DNA from: Candidatus Hodarchaeum mangrovi
Lineage (GTDB): Archaea > Asgardarchaeota > Heimdallarchaeia > Hodarchaeales > Hodarchaeaceae
Length of the DNA stretch: 64,000 nt
Assembly: GCA_016839515.1 (NCBI GenBank)
Contig: JAEOUE010000254.1
Location: 1 to 64,000 of the forward strand
Direction of reading: 5' to 3'
The position numbers were made by a program, and so were the translations under genes. Positions 55,628-64,000 of this stretch are shown piece by piece. Each line of letters begins with the position of its first letter. Within the stretch, counting starts at the first letter, position 1. The notes below the pieces were generated by a model. That model did not search any database. It was not told where the DNA came from and saw nothing but the letters and a program-made list of their open reading frames with translations.

Positions 55628-57574
55628 TCAAGAAGGAGTATCAAGCAGATTGGAATATTCAATTAATCCTAAATCTTGCAAGTGATTTTTATTAGGTAAT
55701 GAAGTCTCTAAATCCCATTTCAATTTATTATAAAAATCACGTATAATCTGATTTTCTTCTTCGACAGTAATACCTTTATTTGGGCCACTAATTGCTGTTT
55801 TAAGAAGTCGAGTAGGTAATTTGAATGCTAAAGGATTAATTCCTTCTCGAATGTTGAACAAATGTTTAAGAGTAAAAATTCTTTCACCAATTATTGCAAG
55901 TTCTTTTCCTGAATAGGTTGAACCCAGAGTTAATTTTAAGAATTCAGCTATTGGGAAATTTCCCGTTACTAAAGAAAATTGACATAACCCCAGTGACGAA
56001 GTGAGTTGATTATAAAAATAAAAATTAGAGATTTGATCCTTCTTATCTAATTCAGGATACATTTCGTTATATTTAGATAATCCAATCATCAACTCCATAA
56101 AAGCAGTATGTCGACCAGGAGCTGGATCTATTCGATAGGGTAAAACAAGTGTTTTAGAATAACGGGGATCATGAGCTGGAATTGGTTGATTTTGGATATG
56201 CATCGCATATTCTTCTCCCAATTCCTTTTCAACTGCTTTTAATCCTTCTGCAAACCGATCCCCAAGGCCTCTACGATGAACTATTAGCTCTAAAAAGGCC
56301 AAATAGTTTTGCGGGTGTCCCCAATCTAGGATTAAACCTTCTAAATCTTGAGCTGTTAACCGTCCTGTTTCCTGTGCCTCTATAGCATAAGCTATTAATG
56401 CACCAGCTGCGATTGTATCCACTCCCTGTCTATTACAAAAGTCATTAAGCTGAAAAATTGATCCTAGATCATCATTCAGGAGATTTGATCCCAGCATTGC
56501 TAATGTTTCATATTCAGGCTTATGGGTATCTTCAAAAGTATATCTTTCATCTGAATAACGCATTATTCCTCCACAAGCCATTGGACAGGAATGACATCCA
56601 TAGCTTTTGATCTGATATTGTATTACATTATCTCCAGTTATTTTTATACTATTTTTTAACGGAAAATCCTTATGAGAACCACCCCAATTTTTTACTGGAC
56701 CATCTCCTGTTTCTACTGCAATAGCCGTTCCAGCACAAGTTCCCCACTTTCTATACCCCTCTATCACTAGATTAGAAGGACTCATAGAGCCGAAGTTTTT
56801 AATCCTGAAGCGTCGAATCCATGGTGCAAATATCGTTGAAGCTTTTAAAGCAGGTTCCATTAATGAACTAATTCCTTTATTTATCCGTTTATTAACCAAT
56901 TTTCTAAGCTCGGTTAATCCATCTGGGTCACTTACTGGTATATCCTTTGTTCCACTAACGACAATAGCTTTCAAATTTTTAGACCCCATGACTGCACCTA
57001 AACCACTTCTAGCCGCTATTCGTCCTTTATCGGTCACAATACCACTAATTAATACTTTATTCTCTCCAGCTAATCCTATAGAAGCAACATGTACCTTTCC
57101 ATATTGATTCTGCAGTATTTCCTCAGTTTCTAAACAATCCTTCCCTTTTAAATGAGGTGAGGAAATAATCTCTACTGAATCATCAGTAATACGTAGAATA
57201 CTTAGCTCTTTAGATTTTCCTTTAATTATAAGACCATCAAATCCAGATTTTCTTAATTCTGGCCCAAAACGTCCACCACAGTTAGCCTCTCCCCATGTAT
57301 TAGTCAGTGGAGATTTAGATGCAACAGTAAACCGTCCAGAAAAAGGAATTCGTGTTGCACTAAATATTCCTGTAATAAAGCATAAAAAATTATCTGGAGA
57401 GAGAGGATCAACTTTAGCAGGCATATTTCTTAAGAGATAATCAATAACTATGCCATGACCACCTAAAAATTTTAAAAATTTTTCTTCACTAAATCCAATT
57501 GACTCTAATGAAACAGATTTATTTGTTAAGTCAATTATTGCAAGACGATATAATCTAGAATTAGAAATACTCAA
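55628..57574 (-). CDS. aor: Tungsten-dependent aldehyde:ferredoxin oxidoreductase family protein
   Basis: KSPLT, GEANCGG, AARSGLGAVMGSKNLKAI, CHSCPMAC, PEYET, GVDTI, HDPR, GLCQF. Confidence 0.9.
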   Translation of the reverse strand: MSISNSRLYRLAIIDLTNKSVSLESIGFSEEKFLKFLGGHGIVIDYLLRNMPAKVDPLSPDNFLCFITGIFSATRIPFSGRFTVASKSPLTNTWGEANCGGRFGPELRKSGFDGLIIKGKSKELSILRITDDSVEIISSPHLKGKDCLETEEILQNQYGKVHVASIGLAGENKVLISGIVTDKGRIAARSGLGAVMGSKNLKAIVVSGTKDIPVSDPDGLTELRKLVNKRINKGISSLMEPALKASTIFAPWIRRFRIKNFGSMSPSNLVIEGYRKWGTCAGTAIAVETGDGPVKNWGGSHKDFPLKNSIKITGDNVIQYQIKSYGCHSCPMACGGIMRYSDERYTFEDTHKPEYETLAMLGSNLLNDDLGSIFQLNDFCNRQGVDTIAAGALIAYAIEAQETGRLTAQDLEGLILDWGHPQNYLAFLELIVHRRGLGDRFAEGLKAVEKELGEEYAMHIQNQPIPAHDPRYSKTLVLPYRIDPAPGRHTAFMELMIGLSKYNEMYPELDKKDQISNFYFYNQLTSSLGLCQFSLVTGNFPIAEFLKLTLGSTYSGKELAIIGERIFTLKHLFNIREGINPLAFKLPTRLLKTAISGPNKGITVEEENQIIRDFYNKLKWDLETSLPNKNHLQDLGLIEYSNLLDTPS

Positions 57575-57625: not shown

Positions 57626-58465
57626 TCATTTGAGACCAAAACCCATTTGCATTAATTCCGAAAGCTTAGCGAGGAATCGAGTCGCGGGAGCTCCAAGGGA
57701 CACCTCCTCATCAAACATCACAGTCATACTGAGGTATTCGCCAATGTCGACAGGGTTAGCTAGATCTCTTCGCTTCTTAAAGATTCCCCCCAATGCGAAC
57801 ACAACAGGATGCAAACCGATTGGGATGGCCCATCCCCCGCCTTTTCCGAACATACCTACTGCTGTGACACCAACAGTACCCATGAGACGCTTCCTTAGAA
57901 AAGGATCTGATCTAATTTTCCACCAAAAAGGCTTCTTCAGGAAGCCTGGTAAGCGAAGAAAGACACTGACTGACTCAGGAATCCCTTCACCAGCTATGAA
58001 ACGTCCACTGGTTTCTAACCTCTGGACCCGACGAATCTCATCATTAATCTGCCTGAAGCTCTTCTCATTCGCCTTCCTCACGATGTATTGAGTAGGAACC
58101 TTTTCTGAATTCACCTGCCGCTCGATTATCATGCCAACATCAACATCCTCGAAGACAATGAGCTTTATTTTTCCTTTCTTAAAGGCTTGAATTTCTCTAT
58201 GCTCGCCTATGGCTTGAGCAATACATTTTATCACCCAAGCTGTGAAAGAAAGCTTCTCTCCAGTCTTTACTTCATTCTCTATGATAAACTTCCGTGCTTC
58301 TGTGACATCAATCTCAACTAGCCCATAGATACGGTTTTTCGGTGCTAGGTTGTTAAGAAGGTCTATGGGCCAAGTAGATCTGCGGGTTATTTCTCTGAAA
58401 GGAACAGTACTTCCTAATTCTTCGGGTTTCATATCTGGGTCCTGCTTTTTTGAACTCATAAACAA
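57626..58465 (-). CDS. Stand-alone 2-oxoacid dehydrogenase acyltransferase (E2) catalytic-domain protein lacking the catalytic His
   Basis: EIDVT, SFTAWVIKC, GTVGVTAVG, FDEEVSLGAPATRF in place of DHxxxDGA; no lipoyl domain. Confidence 0.8.
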   Translation of the reverse strand: MFMSSKKQDPDMKPEELGSTVPFREITRRSTWPIDLLNNLAPKNRIYGLVEIDVTEARKFIIENEVKTGEKLSFTAWVIKCIAQAIGEHREIQAFKKGKIKLIVFEDVDVGMIIERQVNSEKVPTQYIVRKANEKSFRQINDEIRRVQRLETSGRFIAGEGIPESVSVFLRLPGFLKKPFWWKIRSDPFLRKRLMGTVGVTAVGMFGKGGGWAIPIGLHPVVFALGGIFKKRRDLANPVDIGEYLSMTVMFDEEVSLGAPATRFLAKLSELMQMGFGLK

Positions 58466-58597: not shown

Positions 58598-59794
58598 GTG
58601 ACCAAAAAAAGTGTGATTTCAGGGTTTGTCAAACCTAGGTTTGAAGCTGTACAGGAAGCCTTCGCTGAGAACTTTGAGCAGCGAAATGAACTAGGGGCAG
58701 CCTGTTGTATTTACCACCGAGGAGAAAAAGTAGTCGACTTATGGGGTGGCATTAGAAACGAAACTACTGGAGAACCATGGGAAGAAGATACCATGGTGAT
58801 TGTTTGGTCAACTACAAAGGGATTAGCTGGATTAGCTATGGCACTTGCTCATTCACGGGGATTATTTGACTTCGATGAATGTGTCTCAAAGTATTGGCCT
58901 GAATTTGCTCAAGAGGGTAAAGAGAATATCACTATTCGACAGCTACTAGCACATCAAGCGGGACTCTTTGAATTCGATGGACAAGGTGACAAGAACACGA
59001 TAGCAGACCTTGATCGTCTAGCAGAGAACTTAGCACGACAAAAACCTGCATGGGAGCCAGGAACGAAGCAGGGATATCACGCTATCAGCCTTGGATACTA
59101 CCAAAGCGAGCTCTTGCGCCACGTTGACCCCAATGGCCGTAGCCTAGGGCAGTACTTCCAAGATGAAATTGCTACTCCACTTGGTCTCGACTTCTACATT
59201 CGACTTCCTGAAGAAATTCCAAATTCCAGACTAGCTACCCTTCGAACTGCCAAGATTGGCCTTTTGGCGATACGAGGTATGCCATTCCGCTTGGTTCTTG
59301 CATCGATGTACAAAAATTCTACATTCCGTAGATCGCTATTTGGGAGTGACATTTCCTTGGACAAAGAACATATTTATGCTAGGAATTTCGAAGTTCCTTC
59401 AGGAGGAGGTGTGGGAACAGCCCGTGCCATTGCTCATGCATACAGCGTTTTTGCGACCGGTGGAAAGGAACTTGGACTGCGAGAGGATACACTTCAACAA
59501 TTAATGGCACCCCCCGTTGCTCCATTACAAGGATCCAGAGATCTAGCCCTAAAAGTGGAGATACCATTCTCTCTCAGTTTCACGAAACCCTCTCCAAAGA
59601 CCCCCTGGGGTTCTCCTAGCTCATTTGGGATGCCAGGAACAGGAGGTTCATTTGGATTTGCGGATCCACAAGCTAAGATAGGATATGGGTATGTCCTCAA
59701 TGGGATGGGTATGTCACTTACTGATCCAAGAGACCTCGCTCTACGTACAGCAATGTACCATTCAATTGGCATAACAGATCCGTACTATGAGTGA
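58598..59794 (+). CDS. Serine hydrolase, beta-lactamase class C-like esterase
   Basis: VVDLWGG, STTK (SxxK), LLAHQAGL, WEPGT..GYH, FGMPGTGGS. Confidence 0.92.
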   Translation: MTKKSVISGFVKPRFEAVQEAFAENFEQRNELGAACCIYHRGEKVVDLWGGIRNETTGEPWEEDTMVIVWSTTKGLAGLAMALAHSRGLFDFDECVSKYWPEFAQEGKENITIRQLLAHQAGLFEFDGQGDKNTIADLDRLAENLARQKPAWEPGTKQGYHAISLGYYQSELLRHVDPNGRSLGQYFQDEIATPLGLDFYIRLPEEIPNSRLATLRTAKIGLLAIRGMPFRLVLASMYKNSTFRRSLFGSDISLDKEHIYARNFEVPSGGGVGTARAIAHAYSVFATGGKELGLREDTLQQLMAPPVAPLQGSRDLALKVEIPFSLSFTKPSPKTPWGSPSSFGMPGTGGSFGFADPQAKIGYGYVLNGMGMSLTDPRDLALRTAMYHSIGITDPYYE

Positions 59795-60720
59795 GGAGAC
59801 AATCCAACACTAGGAACCAAGAGATTCAAAACGATACAAATTTTAACAAGTCTGCAAATTCTAATACTTCCTATTGTATTTTGCCTTCACATTTGAATAT
59901 GAAAACTAACATACTTATAGGTACTTTGTGGTAGGTTACAGTTTCATTACTGCGTACAGATATTGATTTCGTCTCTACCCAATCGGAACTCTTTTATATT
60001 CCTCGTGTTAGGTATCTTGGGATTCTTAATAGATCCCTAGATTCTGAAAGGATAATTATTGTGGTTAATCAGGATTCAGGGACATATTATAATCTATGAT
60101 TGTATAATATTGGCGACAGTGCAAGTCATTGTCCTCCTACGTGGAGATGAAAACCAAGTTTGATTAGCAAAACAGATCTATACCACAGGACCAGCTAGAA
60201 CATACCTGAAATAGAAAAGGAGCAAACAGAATCGTCCCAGAAAAAATCAGTAATAAACAGATTACAACCAGATAATAGAATAGGGCTATAGGGAACAATA
60301 TAAGTAATTGCAAATTATATAAGTCACTACAATACAAGTGATTTAATATTATAGGACAGTGTTACAGTGATTATTAATAAAGAAATTCTAGAGGTTGTTG
60401 TTAGCATAAACAACCATCAGGAAGATCTATTCATTTGCAATATTATTTTTAGTTTTCTACTTCATTGATAGACCATTTTTGCAAAGTGTTGAAGTATTTA
60501 AAAGAGATAATTGTTTCCTTTTGAATCGCACAAAAGAGAAAAGATTCTCAGCGGTGTGCAAAGCATTAATTTTGTTGACTTCCTGATGGAAGGAATTTTC
60601 ACCTCTCCCCTATCCTATAGCTATTAAGACGGTGTGAAACCTATATTTTAAATTATAACCTTTTCCTTTGTTTACAATCGATACTTTAACCTTAATACTA
60701 TTGTTTTTAATTGCTTATTT

Positions 60721-60748
60721 GTTATATCACTATTTGTGACAATATAAC
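60721..60748. promoter_or_regulatory. Imperfect inverted repeat upstream of the hgcA-like gene; candidate operator
   Basis: GTTATATCAC-TATTT-GTGACAATATAAC, about 70 bp before the ATG at 60821. Confidence 0.35.
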
Positions 60749-60820
60749 TTAGGATCAAGTATACTCAAGCAGTTAACATCCATTGGAGATATATAGTATA
60801 ACACCAATGAATCATATATT

Positions 60821-62482
60821 ATGAGTCTTCTCTATATGAAAGTTCTTGAAAAATCTCCTGACCAGTATGATAAAGAATTTCAAAAATTATTTCCAGAAAG
60901 CGCAGAAATATATGAATTAATATTAAAGACAATCGGGAAAACGGGAAAAGTGCTGGAGGTTGGGAGTGGAACAGGAAAACTAGCGATTCAATTGAATAAA
61001 CTTGGATTAGATGTTACTGCTGTCGATACCTCGAAAGATATGATTGATTTTGCCTTAAAAGAAGTTCAATTAAATAATATAGATGTTAAATTTATTCTGG
61101 GAGACTTTACTTCTCATATTATTTATCAGCAACTAGAAACAGAAGGACCATTTGATTTTATTATTTCTACCTTTGTCTTATCAGAACTCACACCTCTTAA
61201 ACAAATACTCTTCCTTAAACAAATATTTAATCTCTTATCCCCAAAAGGACAAATTTTTATTGCAGCAGAAACATTTCCGAAGACAAGATTTGCGAAATAT
61301 TTCTATAAACTAAAAATAGGTATTCTTAATCAAATTAATATTTTTCGTGAAGGGTATAGTACTTATCCTATCCTTGACTTCAAGAAAAGATTAGAATATT
61401 GGTTTCAAGGTGACTTTTTACTGGAAAAAAGGAATATTCAATTATATAATGGAACAAAAAAAGATTCTGAACCTGAAATTACACCTTTACTTTCTTTAGA
61501 AAGTCAACTGGGACGATTTCGATGGTTAAAAGTATTTTATTGTATTCTTAATGGAGTTTTAACCCGTAAAAGTATTAAACCAGGTTTATATAAAGTCGGG
61601 AATCCAAATAACCAATCTCCATTGTTGGTTACCTCAAATTACTATTGGACCGCTTCAACAGTCTCTAAAACTTTACAAAACTTTCAAATTGACTGTTATG
61701 TACTCGTTGCAGATACCAAAGGAATTAATGTTTGGTGTGCTGCTGGAGGAGGTCATTTTACCCATCATAGTATTATCGATGCACTCAGACTCTTTGATGT
61801 GGATAAATTTCTGACCCATAAAGAAATTGTTATTCCTCAACTTGCAGCAACAGGAGTTGATAGAAAAGAAATAACAAAATTCAAATGGGAACCAAAATTT
61901 GGACCAATAAGTATTAAAGAAATCCATAATTATCTGATTAATGGTCGAAAAAAATATCCTTCCCAATCCAAAATTAGATTTGATATTGTTAACAGAACAT
62001 TTATGGGAACTCAACATACAATATTTCTATTAATAATGTATTTTCTCCCAATTTTCTTATTAACTGGATTTCTGGGTTTTTTAGGATTGGATCGATCATT
62101 CTTTTGGTTTAATGTGTCGTTTCAAGGTGCTATTATTGCATTATCCCAAAGTCAATTTTTTGCTTGGTTTTACCCCCTTTTCAATTATACACGATCCTTT
62201 TTCATTAAAGGACTTACTTTTGGAACAATTTCTAGCGTAGGAATCTTGTTTCTCATGACTGGTTTAAAAACCTCATATAACCTCTCCACCATTATTTTCT
62301 GGTTTCTGCTTATAATGCTCCTTGGTCTGCTCGTAAGTTTGGATTTTGCTGGACAAACACCCTATTCAAATCATTTAGAAGTCGAAGCTGATTTGATATT
62401 GTTTCTTTTACCAGCGATTCTCATAATAATCTTTTTAATAACAATGTTGATATTATTTCCTCCTATTACGCTATTATTTTAA
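60821..62482 (+). CDS. Fusion of a class I SAM methyltransferase with an HgcA-like corrinoid-binding domain and TM domain
   Basis: VLEVGSGTG (SAM motif I); PGLYKVGNP..SPLLVTSNY, DTKGINVWCAAGGG (cap helix), IPQLAATGV, FGP; about 5 TMs with DFAGQTPYS. Confidence 0.85.
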   Translation: MSLLYMKVLEKSPDQYDKEFQKLFPESAEIYELILKTIGKTGKVLEVGSGTGKLAIQLNKLGLDVTAVDTSKDMIDFALKEVQLNNIDVKFILGDFTSHIIYQQLETEGPFDFIISTFVLSELTPLKQILFLKQIFNLLSPKGQIFIAAETFPKTRFAKYFYKLKIGILNQINIFREGYSTYPILDFKKRLEYWFQGDFLLEKRNIQLYNGTKKDSEPEITPLLSLESQLGRFRWLKVFYCILNGVLTRKSIKPGLYKVGNPNNQSPLLVTSNYYWTASTVSKTLQNFQIDCYVLVADTKGINVWCAAGGGHFTHHSIIDALRLFDVDKFLTHKEIVIPQLAATGVDRKEITKFKWEPKFGPISIKEIHNYLINGRKKYPSQSKIRFDIVNRTFMGTQHTIFLLIMYFLPIFLLTGFLGFLGLDRSFFWFNVSFQGAIIALSQSQFFAWFYPLFNYTRSFFIKGLTFGTISSVGILFLMTGLKTSYNLSTIIFWFLLIMLLGLLVSLDFAGQTPYSNHLEVEADLILFLLPAILIIIFLITMLILFPPITLLF

Positions 62483-62487
62483 GAAAG

Positions 62488-62766
62488 GTGTATATAGTGA
62501 CTGCTAAAATCTTTCAAGAAAAATGCATCGGATGTACATGGTGTGTTGAGGTCTGTCCTCATCAAATAATAATTATTTCAAAAGAAAATAATAAAGCTGA
62601 GATTATAAATGCAAAATTCTGCATAGAATGTGGAGCCTGTGCATTACAATGCCCTGTTGAGGCAATTCGCTCTCATCCTATAGGTTGTGGATGTATAGGT
62701 GGAGTATTAAGAAAAAAGATTAATAAAATTTTACGAAAAGAAAACCCTAAATCTTGTTGTAATTAA
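62488..62766 (+). CDS. HgcB-like 2[4Fe-4S] ferredoxin
   Basis: CIGCTWCVEVCPH, CIECGACALQCP, IGCGC, C-terminal SCC. Confidence 0.85.
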   Translation: MYIVTAKIFQEKCIGCTWCVEVCPHQIIIISKENNKAEIINAKFCIECGACALQCPVEAIRSHPIGCGCIGGVLRKKINKILRKENPKSCCN

Positions 62767-62788: not shown

Positions 62789-63784
62789 ATGGAATACAAA
62801 CTATTAGGAAAGACTGGTATTCGAGTTAGTCGAATTTGTTTAGGAATGATGTCTTTTGGCGATCCCAATATATCTAAATGGACCTTGGGGATTGAAGAAG
62901 CAAAATCAATAATTTTGAAAGCAATCGATTTAGGAATTAATTTTTTTGACACAGCAAATGTCTATTCTGCTGGGAAATCAGAGGAAATAACTGGTGAGAT
63001 CTTAAAGGATTATAGAGATGAAGTTGTGATTGCTACTAAAGTCTTTTTCCCCTTAAGTGGCTATAGTCGTGATCCCGAACCAAAACCAAACACTAATGGA
63101 CTCTCACGCTATCATATTAGACAAGCAATCCGTGATTCGCTAAAAAGGCTACAAACTGATCACGTTGATTTATATCAAATTCATCGGTTGGATCCATCTT
63201 TACCAATTGAAGAGATTCTCATATCACTTAATCATCTAATTCAACAAGGAAAAGTCCTTCATATAGGAGCCAGCTCGATGTTTGCATGGCAGTTTACAAA
63301 AAGTCTCTGGATGGCAGAAAAATACAATTTGGAACCGTTTAAAACAATGCAAAACCATTACAACCTTTTATATAGAGAAGAAGAACGAGAAATGATTCCA
63401 TTGTGTCAAGACCAAGATATTGGTCTTATTCCTTGGAGTCCCCTTGCCCGAGGATTCTTAGCTGGTAAATATCAACGTGAAGAAGAAGAGACATCAAATC
63501 GAAGTAAATATGATCGTTATTTAAAGCTGAGATATTTCAAAAAGGAAGACTTTGATATTGTTGACCGAGTTGTTGAAATCGCAAAAGAAAAAGACGTTGA
63601 ACCTGCTCAAATTGCTTTAGCATGGCATTTTAGTAAAGATTATATTACTGCACCTATTTTAGGTGCAACCAATATCAGCCATGTCGAAGATGCTGTAGAA
63701 GCGTTACAAATTAAACTTACAGACTATGATATTGTACGTTTAGAAGAGCTCTATAAACCTCAACTGATCAGTGGTCATTCCTAA
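62789..63784 (+). CDS. Aldo/keto reductase
   Basis: CLGMMSFG, FDTANVYS.G.SE, IATKV, DLYQIHR, PWSPLARG. Confidence 0.93.
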   Translation: MEYKLLGKTGIRVSRICLGMMSFGDPNISKWTLGIEEAKSIILKAIDLGINFFDTANVYSAGKSEEITGEILKDYRDEVVIATKVFFPLSGYSRDPEPKPNTNGLSRYHIRQAIRDSLKRLQTDHVDLYQIHRLDPSLPIEEILISLNHLIQQGKVLHIGASSMFAWQFTKSLWMAEKYNLEPFKTMQNHYNLLYREEEREMIPLCQDQDIGLIPWSPLARGFLAGKYQREEEETSNRSKYDRYLKLRYFKKEDFDIVDRVVEIAKEKDVEPAQIALAWHFSKDYITAPILGATNISHVEDAVEALQIKLTDYDIVRLEELYKPQLISGHS

Positions 63785-63870: not shown

Positions 63871-64000
63871 TTGGAAGAAGAACAATTTCATATACACACA
63901 ACACGTTTATTCGCTGTGTTTGTAATGATGATTGCAGCTTTTTTCTGGGGTACAACATATATAATAGTAAAAATCGGTCTTTCCTATCTTGATCCTCCTC
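63871..64000 (+). CDS. EamA/DMT family transporter, N-terminal part (runs off window end)
   Basis: Manual translation from TTG at 63871: ...FAVFVMMIAAFFWGTTYIIVKIGLSYLDPP. Confidence 0.75.
   Translation, partial: MEEEQFHIHTTRLFAVFVMMIAAFFWGTTYIIVKIGLSYLDPP

Follow-up and report, generated by a model that had tools for sequence, protein, structure and literature searches.

How the mercury methylase HgcAB loads its cobalamin with a methyl group, and what its native function is, are standing questions in mercury biogeochemistry. In the published cycle of the canonical pair, found for instance in Pseudodesulfovibrio mercurii ND132, reduction by the HgcB clusters generates Co(I), S-adenosylmethionine (SAM) methylates it, and the methyl-Co(III) species, ligated by a cysteine thiolate, transfers its methyl group to Hg(II) (PMC11588087). 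The identification of SAM as the methyl source of the purified proteins, acting by way of Co(I) with HgcB as electron mediator, is a result from 2024 that was called unexpected, and the same paper is our source for the role of C73, C94 and C95 of HgcB (PMC11588087). Relatives with a different organization are also described. The partnership between a methyltransferase, CpaM (NF043040), and an HgcAB-like fusion protein (NF043039) is already known to the NCBI curators, whose models show that the association is not a one-off, and fused HgcAB has been published as a relative that does not methylate (PMC4646819, PMC10087281). Here we describe a two-gene cassette in a 64,000-nucleotide stretch (the window) of contig JAEOUE010000254.1 from the archaeon Candidatus Hodarchaeum mangrovi (assembly GCA_016839515.1), in which a CpaM-like methyltransferase is fused in frame to an HgcA-like protein and is followed by an HgcB-like ferredoxin.

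The cassette belongs to an Asgard-specific clade of the CpaM/HgcA-like system that lies below the thresholds of the curated models and has features of canonical HgcA. With modest confidence, we think it probable that it specifies a SAM-loaded, ferredoxin-reduced, membrane-anchored corrinoid methyl carrier of the HgcA family, whose acceptor would most likely be a thiophilic metal or metalloid. An earlier note on this DNA had arrived at a self-contained corrinoid methylation module. Its interpretation stands in part: the fusion is HgcA-like and conserved, while its argument from the cap motif to a different acceptor and its inclusion of two downstream genes do not hold up, as set out below.

Architecture of the fused protein and its ferredoxin

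The fused gene, delimited by its open reading frame (ORF) and by Pfam and NCBIfam matches, occupies positions 60821-62482 on the plus strand (all coordinates are positions within the window, and all parts of the cassette lie on this strand). It ends in a TAA stop at 62480-62482 and encodes 553 residues, comprising a CpaM-like SAM methyltransferase, an HgcA-like corrinoid domain and a domain of five transmembrane (TM) helices. Residues 1-215 (60821-61465) form a class I SAM methyltransferase domain for which NF043040 is the best NCBIfam match; Pfam methyltransferase families match residues 44-143 and their neighbors (Methyltransf_25 at 2.1e-14, Methyltransf_31 at 3.6e-14, and others), and strand/helix alternation of the Rossmann type is seen in an AlphaFold2 model. 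SAM-binding motif I, VLEVGSGTG, is located at residues 44-52 (60950-60976). Across 20 fused homologues its glycines G48, G50 and G52 never vary, and neither do the acidic D69 or L9, E10, P13 and E122, the last four being family-specific residues that lie outside the SAM motifs. An interdomain linker at residues 216-245 (61466-61555), assigned from the model and from relatives, is the point at which the proteins of relatives are either fused or split; it takes in a stretch of lower confidence, with a mean predicted local distance difference test score (pLDDT) of 69 for block 241-250.

The corrinoid-binding domain, of the type shared by HgcA and the corrinoid iron-sulfur protein (CFeSP), spans residues 246-385 (61556-61975) and is recognized by PF03599, NF043039 and NF040863, the PF03599 (CdhD) match covering residues 252-369 (2e-15, 56.9 bits, cut-off 24.8). 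The cap-helix motif GINVWCAAGG lies at residues 301-310 (61721-61750), where Cys306, encoded at 61736-61738, is the expected lower axial ligand of the cobalt; G301, I302, N303, W305, C306, A307, A308 and G310 are invariant in the 20 homologues. Other HgcA-like motifs are PGLYKVGNP (254-262), LVTSNY (269-274) and PQLAATGV (339-346). The membrane domain (residues 389-545; 61985-62455) consists of five long helices, as assigned by DSSP on the AlphaFold2 model (389-420, 426-449, 460-481, 488-510 and 518-545), and aligns over its full length with the 5-TM domain of canonical HgcA, whereas HgcAB-like fusions stop after the fourth helix. Between TM4 and TM5 is the conserved loop DFAGQTPYS (508-516; 62342-62368), which helix counting would place on the cytoplasmic side. 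The comparison of this loop with an NFTG loop in HgcA, drawn in the earlier note, proved sound: 19 canonical sequences show NFTG(A/S)(T/S)(P/T)(F/Y)T(S/N) at the aligned position, and G511 is invariant. The full-length AlphaFold2 model, computed with 20 homologues, is confident overall (mean pLDDT 86.6; predicted template modeling score, pTM, 0.79).

Five bases past the stop of the fused gene, a GTG start at 62488 opens an ORF (62488-62766) for a ferredoxin of 92 residues that is matched by Fer4 (9.1e-13) and by the HgcB model NF040864. The protein is of the 2x[4Fe-4S] type, its cysteines (13, 16, 19, 23, 45, 48, 51, 55, 67, 69, 90 and 91) being distributed over two CX2CX2CX3C motifs, a GCGC sequence (Cys67, Cys69) and the C-terminal pair Cys90-Cys91. 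Among 16 relatives C13, C16, C19, C23, C45, C48, C51, C55 and C69 are invariant and C91 is kept in at least 90%. In the alignment, C69 corresponds to the cysteine of GVGC in canonical HgcB (C73 of ND132), so that by its cysteines the ferredoxin carries two cluster motifs, a C73 equivalent and a terminal pair as HgcB does. These are the HgcB hallmarks that had been claimed for it, and the motifs, the in-frame fusion, the five TM helices and the spacing of the two genes reported at the same time were likewise recovered from the ORFs, Pfam and the model. The C73 equivalent is kept in the ferredoxins of Asgard fused systems, and a terminal CC is found in 15 of 17 Loki/Thor ferredoxins and in four of the six ferredoxins of the window's type; Chloroflexi ferredoxins stop directly past the second cluster, without a tail. 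A side observation concerns two canonical hgcB genes of Desulfobacula (L061, 7999-8300; L086, 1048-1350), in which a TGA falls exactly at the GVG-C position. The frame continues beyond it to ...CC and then to a second TGA, a pattern that fits the selenoprotein form of HgcB (GVGU) listed in PMC13188914.

Every part of the cassette is nearest to the mercury-methylation family and its named satellites, yet each falls below the curated cut-offs. The N-terminal domain matches CpaM at 121.8 bits over model positions 1-192 of 216 (cut-off 180), 77 bits ahead of the next methyltransferase model at 44.4 bits; PmtA and UbiG are the second-best NCBIfam matches. Scores on the CpaM model are 125.4 bits for an orthologue from the genus (L121), 138.6 for a Loki and 130.4 for a Thor fused relative; the separate CpaMs used as controls reached, as expected, 300.2 and 261.2 bits, and a fused form from Chloroflexi 271.6 bits. 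The domain is nonetheless what CpaM is by association, a class I SAM methyltransferase joined to an HgcA-family protein, here by in-frame fusion. The corrinoid and membrane part scores 211.1 bits on the HgcAB-like fusion model (cut-off 285), where its match spans model positions 15-281 of 350 and the separate ferredoxin covers 296-350 with 51.8 bits. Both the score and the presence of the ferredoxin in a separate polypeptide set it outside that family, for which a triple-fusion control gave 371.2 bits. On the HgcA model NF040863 the same part scores 172.2 bits (cut-off 275), as compared to 435.2 for a canonical control (L061), and its cap motif, NVWC306AAGG, keeps the cysteine of the canonical N(V/I)WC(A/S/G)(A/S/G)GK but has G for the final K. 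The CFeSP-type corrinoid domain and five TM helices are those of canonical HgcA. The ferredoxin has HgcB as its best match at 72.0 bits (cut-off 99).

The corrinoid domain is supported as HgcA-like and not CFeSP-like. Against CdhE (NF003195) it scores 76.6 bits, over the C-terminal domain only, where the cut-off is 306, and the profile search and the phylogeny agree on this point (211.1 and 172.2 bits on the HgcA-type models, and CdhE split off by a 100/100 branch), as the earlier note had proposed they be used to decide. No CdhE was found in the genome that contains the window, whose only PF03599 protein is the fused one. The nearest solved relatives by sequence are the CFeSP large subunits 2h9a and 4c1n (1.6e-8), and a sequence search of solved structures found no HgcA structure; the top Foldseek match, 9a0b_A, is by its title a deposited computed model of HgcAB and not an experimental one. 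After it, as neighbors of the N-terminal domain, come class I methyltransferases that act on small molecules, among them CysG of Kitasatospora, PH0226, TehB, DhpI, CmoA and a phosphatidylethanolamine N-methyltransferase.

Spread of the fusion and phylogeny of the family

The fusion is not an artefact, and it is not rare. The junction is bridged without insertions or deletions by contigs from two other studies (X11 record 1, 61030-61752; X19 record 17, 61319-62257), and two further contigs (X9 record 30 and X16 record 14) extend from the end of the fused gene across the ferredoxin; a lack of contig cover in single runs, such as 61792-62052 in X16, carries no evidential weight. Each of 20 DNA runs from eight sediment and soil metagenome studies contains at least half of the sampled words of the stretch; four of these runs may be the source data themselves. 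No RNA run is listed for the stretch, from which we draw nothing. In a collection of 5.8 billion proteins, a methyltransferase Pfam domain and PF03599 stand together on a single chain of about 520-590 residues in 94 of the 120 homologues listed. The closest of those listed come from Hodarchaeales, Heimdallarchaeota and other Asgard metagenome-assembled genomes (43-75% identity), and a large Chloroflexi group follows at about 28%; several fused homologues carry the NCBI name "corrinoid protein-associated methyltransferase CpaM." In a library of representatives at 50% identity, 52 proteins match at E <= 1e-30. Homologues are present at E <= 1e-20 in 203 of 400 genomes of the Asgard phylum, in 45 of the 90 of high quality and in 17 of 21 from the window's genus, and most of the listed Asgard matches cover both domains within one open frame.

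Architectures were compared across 80 loci drawn from species-representative genomes, in which both domains were located with profiles. Four arrangements were found. In Asgard archaea, Anaerolineae and a few other groups, a methyltransferase is fused to an HgcA-like protein and the small ferredoxin is a separate gene. Many bacterial phyla and some archaea have an unfused CpaM immediately upstream of an HgcAB-like fusion. Two Desulfobacteraceae (L048 and L054) and the Asgard locus L146 show a triple fusion, and the fourth arrangement is canonical HgcA plus HgcB with no methyltransferase. The sequence N[VI]WC, with the cap cysteine, is kept in 79 of 79 family proteins. In 36 of these the methyltransferase is fused and in 23 it is adjacent, which amounts to 59 of the 60 non-canonical relatives fetched. 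None of the 19 canonical loci, which have K in the cap motif, has a fused or adjacent methyltransferase, and none of five genomes with canonical HgcA has a CpaM above the cut-off (best score 80.6 bits), in keeping with the earlier note, which gave canonical HgcA no fused methyltransferase. Conversely, among the loci examined, this methyltransferase subfamily occurs only beside or fused to HgcA-like proteins.

The residue that follows the cap motif is K in 19 of the 20 proteins without a methyltransferase at the locus and in 0 of the 59 with one. Because the K-bearing proteins form one clade, this contrast represents one evolutionary event and not 19 independent ones. That the canonical motif ends in K agrees both with Capo 2022 and with the 19 canonical sequences. 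The earlier note had taken the change from K to G as a pointer to an acceptor other than mercury, but the G type is common to all of the methyltransferase-associated relatives and is a clade marker only.

Several genomes contain more than one system. Many Loki-type genomes hold, in addition, a CpaM and an HgcAB-like fusion in the same frame. In five of these second systems (L141-L145) one to three TAA codons stand at the junction, and in the sixth (L146) the frame is continuous as a triple fusion (L141-L146 being from G178, G208, G270, G271, G007 and G099). We considered recoding of the in-frame TAA codons and rejected it; they are the ordinary boundaries of two genes in the same frame. Within the window's genus, some genomes (G070, contigs C5 and C39; G071; G074; G060; and others) hold two fused cassettes, one of the window's type (E about 1e-160) and one of a second type (E about 1e-75) that has the cap motif NVWCAARG and a methyltransferase domain scoring 222.1 bits, above the CpaM cut-off. 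The window's own genome holds only the first type.

The corrinoid and membrane domains of 86 proteins (302 columns) were placed in a maximum-likelihood tree under LG+C20+F+G4, rooted with ten Asgard CdhE proteins, which fill no more than about 42% of the columns retained; 17 loci that were redundant or truncated had been excluded beforehand. Canonical HgcA is a 100/100 clade, the window protein groups with five orthologues from its genus at 100/100, and CdhE is set apart by a 100/100 branch. A branch with support of 100/97 joins the 19 canonical HgcA proteins to 24 fused ones (43 rows), namely the window's clade, the second type of the genus, Thor, Loki/Hermod and three bacterial proteins; the Chloroflexi fused forms and all HgcAB-like fusions fall outside it. 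(Two Asgard CdhE proteins of about 600 residues, L133 and L137 from G005 and G002, contain the corrinoid-binding domain twice in tandem.) In the free CdhE-rooted tree, canonical HgcA is nested among methyltransferase-associated proteins. In an approximately unbiased (AU) test, however, a single clade of all 57 methyltransferase-associated rows was not rejected (p-AU 0.576, with a log-likelihood higher by 2.06), so that the tree does not decide whether canonical HgcA is nested among these forms or sister to them, and we make no claim that it descends from a fused ancestor. Under either root, the window protein belongs to the methyltransferase-bearing lineages nearest the true mercury methylase.

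A quick tree of 56 methyltransferase domains, with seven other methyltransferases of the window genome as outgroup, agreed with the corrinoid-domain tree in its terminal clades and in the deep split (Shimodaira-Hasegawa-like approximate likelihood ratio test, SH-aLRT, 98). The window's domain clusters with the CpaM domains of other fused proteins as against the outgroup (SH-aLRT 84), although the long outgroup branches make the root of this tree unsafe. Since clades and split match in both trees, the two domains diverged together, and the window protein lies on the side of canonical HgcA in both.

Gene neighborhood

Twelve loci of the genus were compared, the window and 11 others (eight of the window's type and three of the second type). 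The fused gene and the ferredoxin are adjacent in all 12, and nothing else from the last 14 kb of the window recurs in the other loci. Downstream of the cassette lie an aldo-keto reductase gene (62789-63784; PF00248, 263.7 bits) and an EamA gene that starts at 63871 and runs past the window (316 residues when read from the contig; PF00892, 115.4 bits). Cotranscription of these two with the cassette had been suggested, but both are missing from the 11 other loci of the genus, and as only two genes are syntenic we reject them as parts of the module and regard them as bystanders. Upstream are genes for an aldehyde:ferredoxin oxidoreductase (55628-57574, minus strand), a protein with a 2-oxoacid dehydrogenase acyltransferase domain (57626-58465, minus strand) and a beta-lactamase-family serine hydrolase (58598-59794, plus strand), none of which recurs beside the cassette in relatives. 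The neighbors of window-type cassettes elsewhere in the genus are unrelated genes: a methyladenine glycosylase, an arginase, a class V aminotransferase, a radical-SAM protein and a Ras-like GTPase.

An AT-rich gap of 1 kb (59795-60820) with no convincing ORFs and no tRNA precedes the fused gene. It contains an AT-rich, TATA-like run about 25-35 bases ahead of the ATG at 60821. A hairpin on the minus strand (60378-60431) matches mir-1829 at 33.5 bits, as compared to a gathering threshold of 60, and is probably a chance match; an Rfam search of the upstream region at E up to 1 gave only sub-threshold matches at chance level, this one and two others.

Cassettes of related lineages have regulators beside them, and the regulator family differs between sub-clades. 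A metalloregulator of the ArsR/SmtB family adjoins the fused cassette in 10 of 17 Loki/Thor loci. In four Thor loci (L012, L021, L022 and L035) it is directly upstream on the same strand, and in six Loki loci (L011, L014, L015, L019, L023 and L025) it is directly upstream of the cassette or divergent from it. Genes of the ACR3 arsenite-efflux type are present in four of the 17, at 266.8-281.0 bits and thus under the cut-off of 282.8. An ArsR-type gene lies upstream of canonical hgcA in 9 of 19 loci. TetR-type regulators (L079, L028 and relatives) were found in 5 of 19 loci with CpaM and an HgcAB-like fusion and in 3 of 12 Chloroflexi fused loci.

Proposed function and relation to known systems

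The domain architecture, how well it is conserved, where the proteins fall in the family and the way in which these two genes alone stay paired are observations, and from them we infer a series of chemical steps. The HgcB-like ferredoxin would hand low-potential electrons to the corrinoid of the HgcA-like domain and so generate Co(I). SAM held by the CpaM-like Rossmann domain would methylate Co(I), giving methyl-Co(III), with Cys306 as its lower axial ligand, and S-adenosylhomocysteine. The methyl group would then move from cobalt to an electrophilic or radical acceptor of a kind that SAM cannot methylate directly. For the Asgard clade that acceptor would most likely be a thiophilic metal or metalloid, delivered by the tail cysteines of the ferredoxin. 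It is possible that the cassette is competent for Hg(II).

We read the cassette as a SAM-loaded carrier because the sequence elements of the published HgcAB cycle are all conserved in it and a SAM domain has been added. The best NCBIfam matches of its three parts (CpaM, HgcAB-like or HgcA, and HgcB) count in the same direction. Repeated fusion and fission at one junction, together with the codivergence of the domains, support a coupling of the SAM module to the cobalamin domain, which is how the fusion had been construed in the earlier note. By the established chemistry of cobalamin, a methyl group borne by cobalt would have its polarity inverted relative to that of SAM. Routing the methyl group through cobalt would thus suit an electrophilic or radical acceptor, and the cysteine tail and the ArsR/ACR3 context in Loki and Thor point to thiophilic metals or metalloids. 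When the methyltransferase domain was co-folded with the HgcA-like domain, the ferredoxin and SAM, the score was 0.37 (0.35-0.48 in three runs), with 0.02 as the best of three for the controls, agreement between runs on at least 43% of contacts and a partner pLDDT of at least 74. On calibration, 58 of 80 solved complexes attained the mark, as did 2 of 110 mismatched pairs; seven of the 80 and both mismatches did so at 0.60 or below. The predicted docking of the methyltransferase domain thus receives weak backing from the models.

That weakness is one of several points that weigh against a SAM-loaded carrier of metal-directed methyl groups. The N-terminal domain, at 121.8 bits, is well short of the CpaM cut-off of 180 and of the 261-300 bits of separate CpaMs, and within the corrinoid domain confidence is lowest at the cap-helix block 301-310 (pLDDT 61). 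A single terminal cysteine stands in place of CC in two of the six ferredoxins of the window's type (L120 and L124). Neither metalloregulator nor ACR3 gene was found in the window's clade among nine neighboring ORFs at two window-type loci, nor among the scanned ORFs that flank the cassette within about 5 kb in the window itself. CobS, CbiB and CobQ-type amidase domains were not found in the window genome, which is 91% complete, so that the corrinoid would have to be salvaged; at least nine other proteins with B12-binding domains score above their Pfam cut-offs there, and the organism is probably a corrinoid user that relies on salvage. Canonical HgcAB uses SAM without any CpaM (PMC11588087; none above the cut-off in five genomes), which makes a separate SAM domain chemically dispensable and free to serve otherwise. 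Finally, tests of organisms that carry fused HgcAB yielded no methylmercury (PMC4646819, PMC10087281).

Among the alternatives, we judge it unlikely that the cassette is a working mercury methylase, an Asgard orthologue of HgcAB that acts on Hg(II), with its fused methyltransferase as an accessory for faster methyl loading. Mercury methylation by Asgard archaea was reportedly proposed in a 2023 paper in the ISME Journal. The 100/97 branch that holds the window's clade together with all 19 canonical HgcA proteins favors such a role, as do the five TM helices, the NFTG-type loop, the separate ferredoxin, the C73 equivalent and the terminal CC that are common to both; an upstream ArsR-type regulator is, moreover, common to canonical hgcAB and the related Loki/Thor cassettes. 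Set against this are the scores on the HgcA model (172.2 bits for a cut-off of 275, the canonical control reaching 435.2) and the HgcB model (72.0 for 99), the separateness of canonical HgcA as a 100/100 clade, and the two window-type loci scanned, which are without a metal-responsive neighbor. None of the six high-stringency cap motifs, all of which end in K (Capo 2022), is present, and the only non-canonical relatives tested in culture made no methylmercury, though these are from a different sub-clade.

It is improbable, in our estimation, that SAM serves for repair only, with reductive methylation re-activating Co(II) while the main corrinoid reaction differs, using another donor or dehalogenating halomethanes. 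Known corrinoid re-activation, in MetH, combines a SAM-binding domain with a low-potential electron donor, which speaks for this possibility; the activation domain of MetH is not a class I Rossmann methyltransferase, which speaks against it. Canonical HgcAB manages with SAM in the absence of such a domain (PMC11588087), further methyl donors of HgcA are still proposed (PMC12484752), and a 2026 preprint reports dechlorination of CCl4 by heterologously expressed HgcAB. On the other hand, a stoichiometric pairing, by fusion or adjacency, links the methyltransferase to 59 of 79 family proteins, and the methyltransferase codiverges with its partner, as would suit a catalytic role at least equally well, and no further methyltransferase or dehalogenase gene is conserved beside the cassette.

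We give very little credence to the idea that two activities are joined merely for co-expression, the N-terminal domain methylating a small molecule or lipid directly from SAM and the corrinoid-ferredoxin part acting on the substrate or product without receiving a methyl group from it. The structural neighbors of the domain are ordinary small-molecule methyltransferases, PmtA and UbiG are its second-best NCBIfam matches, and the docking support is weak. The restriction of the subfamily, in the loci examined, to positions beside or within HgcA-like proteins argues otherwise, as do the lack of CpaM above the cut-off in five canonical-HgcA genomes, the family-specific invariants L9, E10, P13 and E122 outside the SAM motifs, and a whole-chain pTM of 0.79, which argues for domains packed in a fixed arrangement. 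An assembly or gene-calling artefact or a decaying pseudogene, to which the fragmented source bin (348 contigs, 6.09% contamination) might have pointed, is refuted for all practical purposes by the listed fused homologues, the invariant catalytic motifs and the contigs that bridge the junction.

Returning to the SAM-loaded carrier, a bolder version of it is conceivable, though we hold it to be doubtful. The Asgard fused proteins might be the nearest living relatives of the mercury methylase or its ancestral form, with the Rossmann domain as the original SAM-loading module, later lost by canonical HgcA, which kept SAM as its donor. Their native job might be methylation with reversed polarity, of the carbanion or radical type, of thiophilic metals or metalloids, under control of the ArsR/ACR3 type in Loki and Thor. 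If so, about half of the sampled Asgard genomes would carry an unrecognized organometal- or organometalloid-forming enzyme.

We found no paper in the searchable literature, supplements excluded, that describes the fusion, its abundance in Asgard archaea or its position near canonical HgcA. In one phylogenetic study, which dropped the first 327 alignment positions as poorly aligned, Asgard sequences fall in the fused-HgcAB subtree, and the available text of that study makes no mention of a methyltransferase domain (PMC10083202); the N-terminal domain would have gone with the positions removed. In the accessible text of the paper on the SAM donor, the terms "fused," "fusion" and "methyltransferase domain" do not occur (PMC11588087). 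The fusion ties the SAM result of 2024 to comparative genomics: a methyltransferase in 59 of 60 non-canonical relatives, fused in the forms nearest the mercury methylase, is independent genomic support for SAM as the donor of the family, a role that the earlier note had mentioned and that is in print (PMC11588087). A naturally self-contained system of two genes lets the loading step be dissected domain by domain. For metagenome surveys, it follows that Asgard hgcA-like genes of this type are not to be counted as canonical mercury-methylation genes without a test.

How, then, does the cassette compare with known systems? The CFeSP of the Wood-Ljungdahl pathway (AcsC/CdhE; 2h9a, 4c1n and 4djd) shares the homologous corrinoid-binding domain PF03599 and is a methyl carrier that cycles through Co(I), as we propose for the window protein. 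It differs in profile score (76.6 as against 306 bits), in the 100/100 branch that separates the two, in its N-terminal Fe-S or TIM-barrel part, which the window protein lacks, in respect of the membrane domain, and in its methyl donor, which is a methyl-pterin. A chemical parallel is provided by the re-activation of methionine synthase, in which SAM methylates Co(I)-cobalamin with the help of a low-potential electron donor. Class B radical-SAM enzymes of the TsrM type are another case in which SAM methylates Co(I)-cobalamin and a low-potential donor is available (PMC11588087). The SAM folds of both are unrelated to that of the window protein, a class I Rossmann domain in a membrane-anchored chain. 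In the window ferredoxin both clusters are fully ligated, and a radical-SAM cluster motif is absent.

Closer is the pair formed by CpaM and the HgcAB-like fusion (NF043040 and NF043039), with which the cassette has in common the methyltransferase subfamily, the NVWCAAGG type of cap and an obligatory partnership. Here, however, the methyltransferase is fused to the corrinoid protein and the ferredoxin is separate, there are five TM helices instead of four, the ferredoxin has a cysteine tail that is missing from the fused ferredoxin domains, both scores fall below the cut-offs (121.8 as against 180 bits and 211.1 as against 285 bits), and in both domain trees the window protein lies on the canonical side. 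Canonical HgcA and HgcB (NF040863 and NF040864) differ in turn by the absence, at all 19 loci, of the 215-residue N-terminal SAM methyltransferase and by a cap motif that ends in K and not in G; the window proteins miss both curated cut-offs, and genes of the window's type have no adjoining ArsR regulator at the loci scanned. What the cassette shares with the canonical pair is the cap helix N-V-W-C within a corrinoid domain of the CFeSP type, the five TM helices, a conserved loop of the NFTG type and, directly downstream, a separate dicluster ferredoxin with a C73-equivalent cysteine and a terminal cysteine pair. The two also stand on the same well-supported side of the tree, and the published methyl donor of the canonical pair is SAM (PMC11588087).

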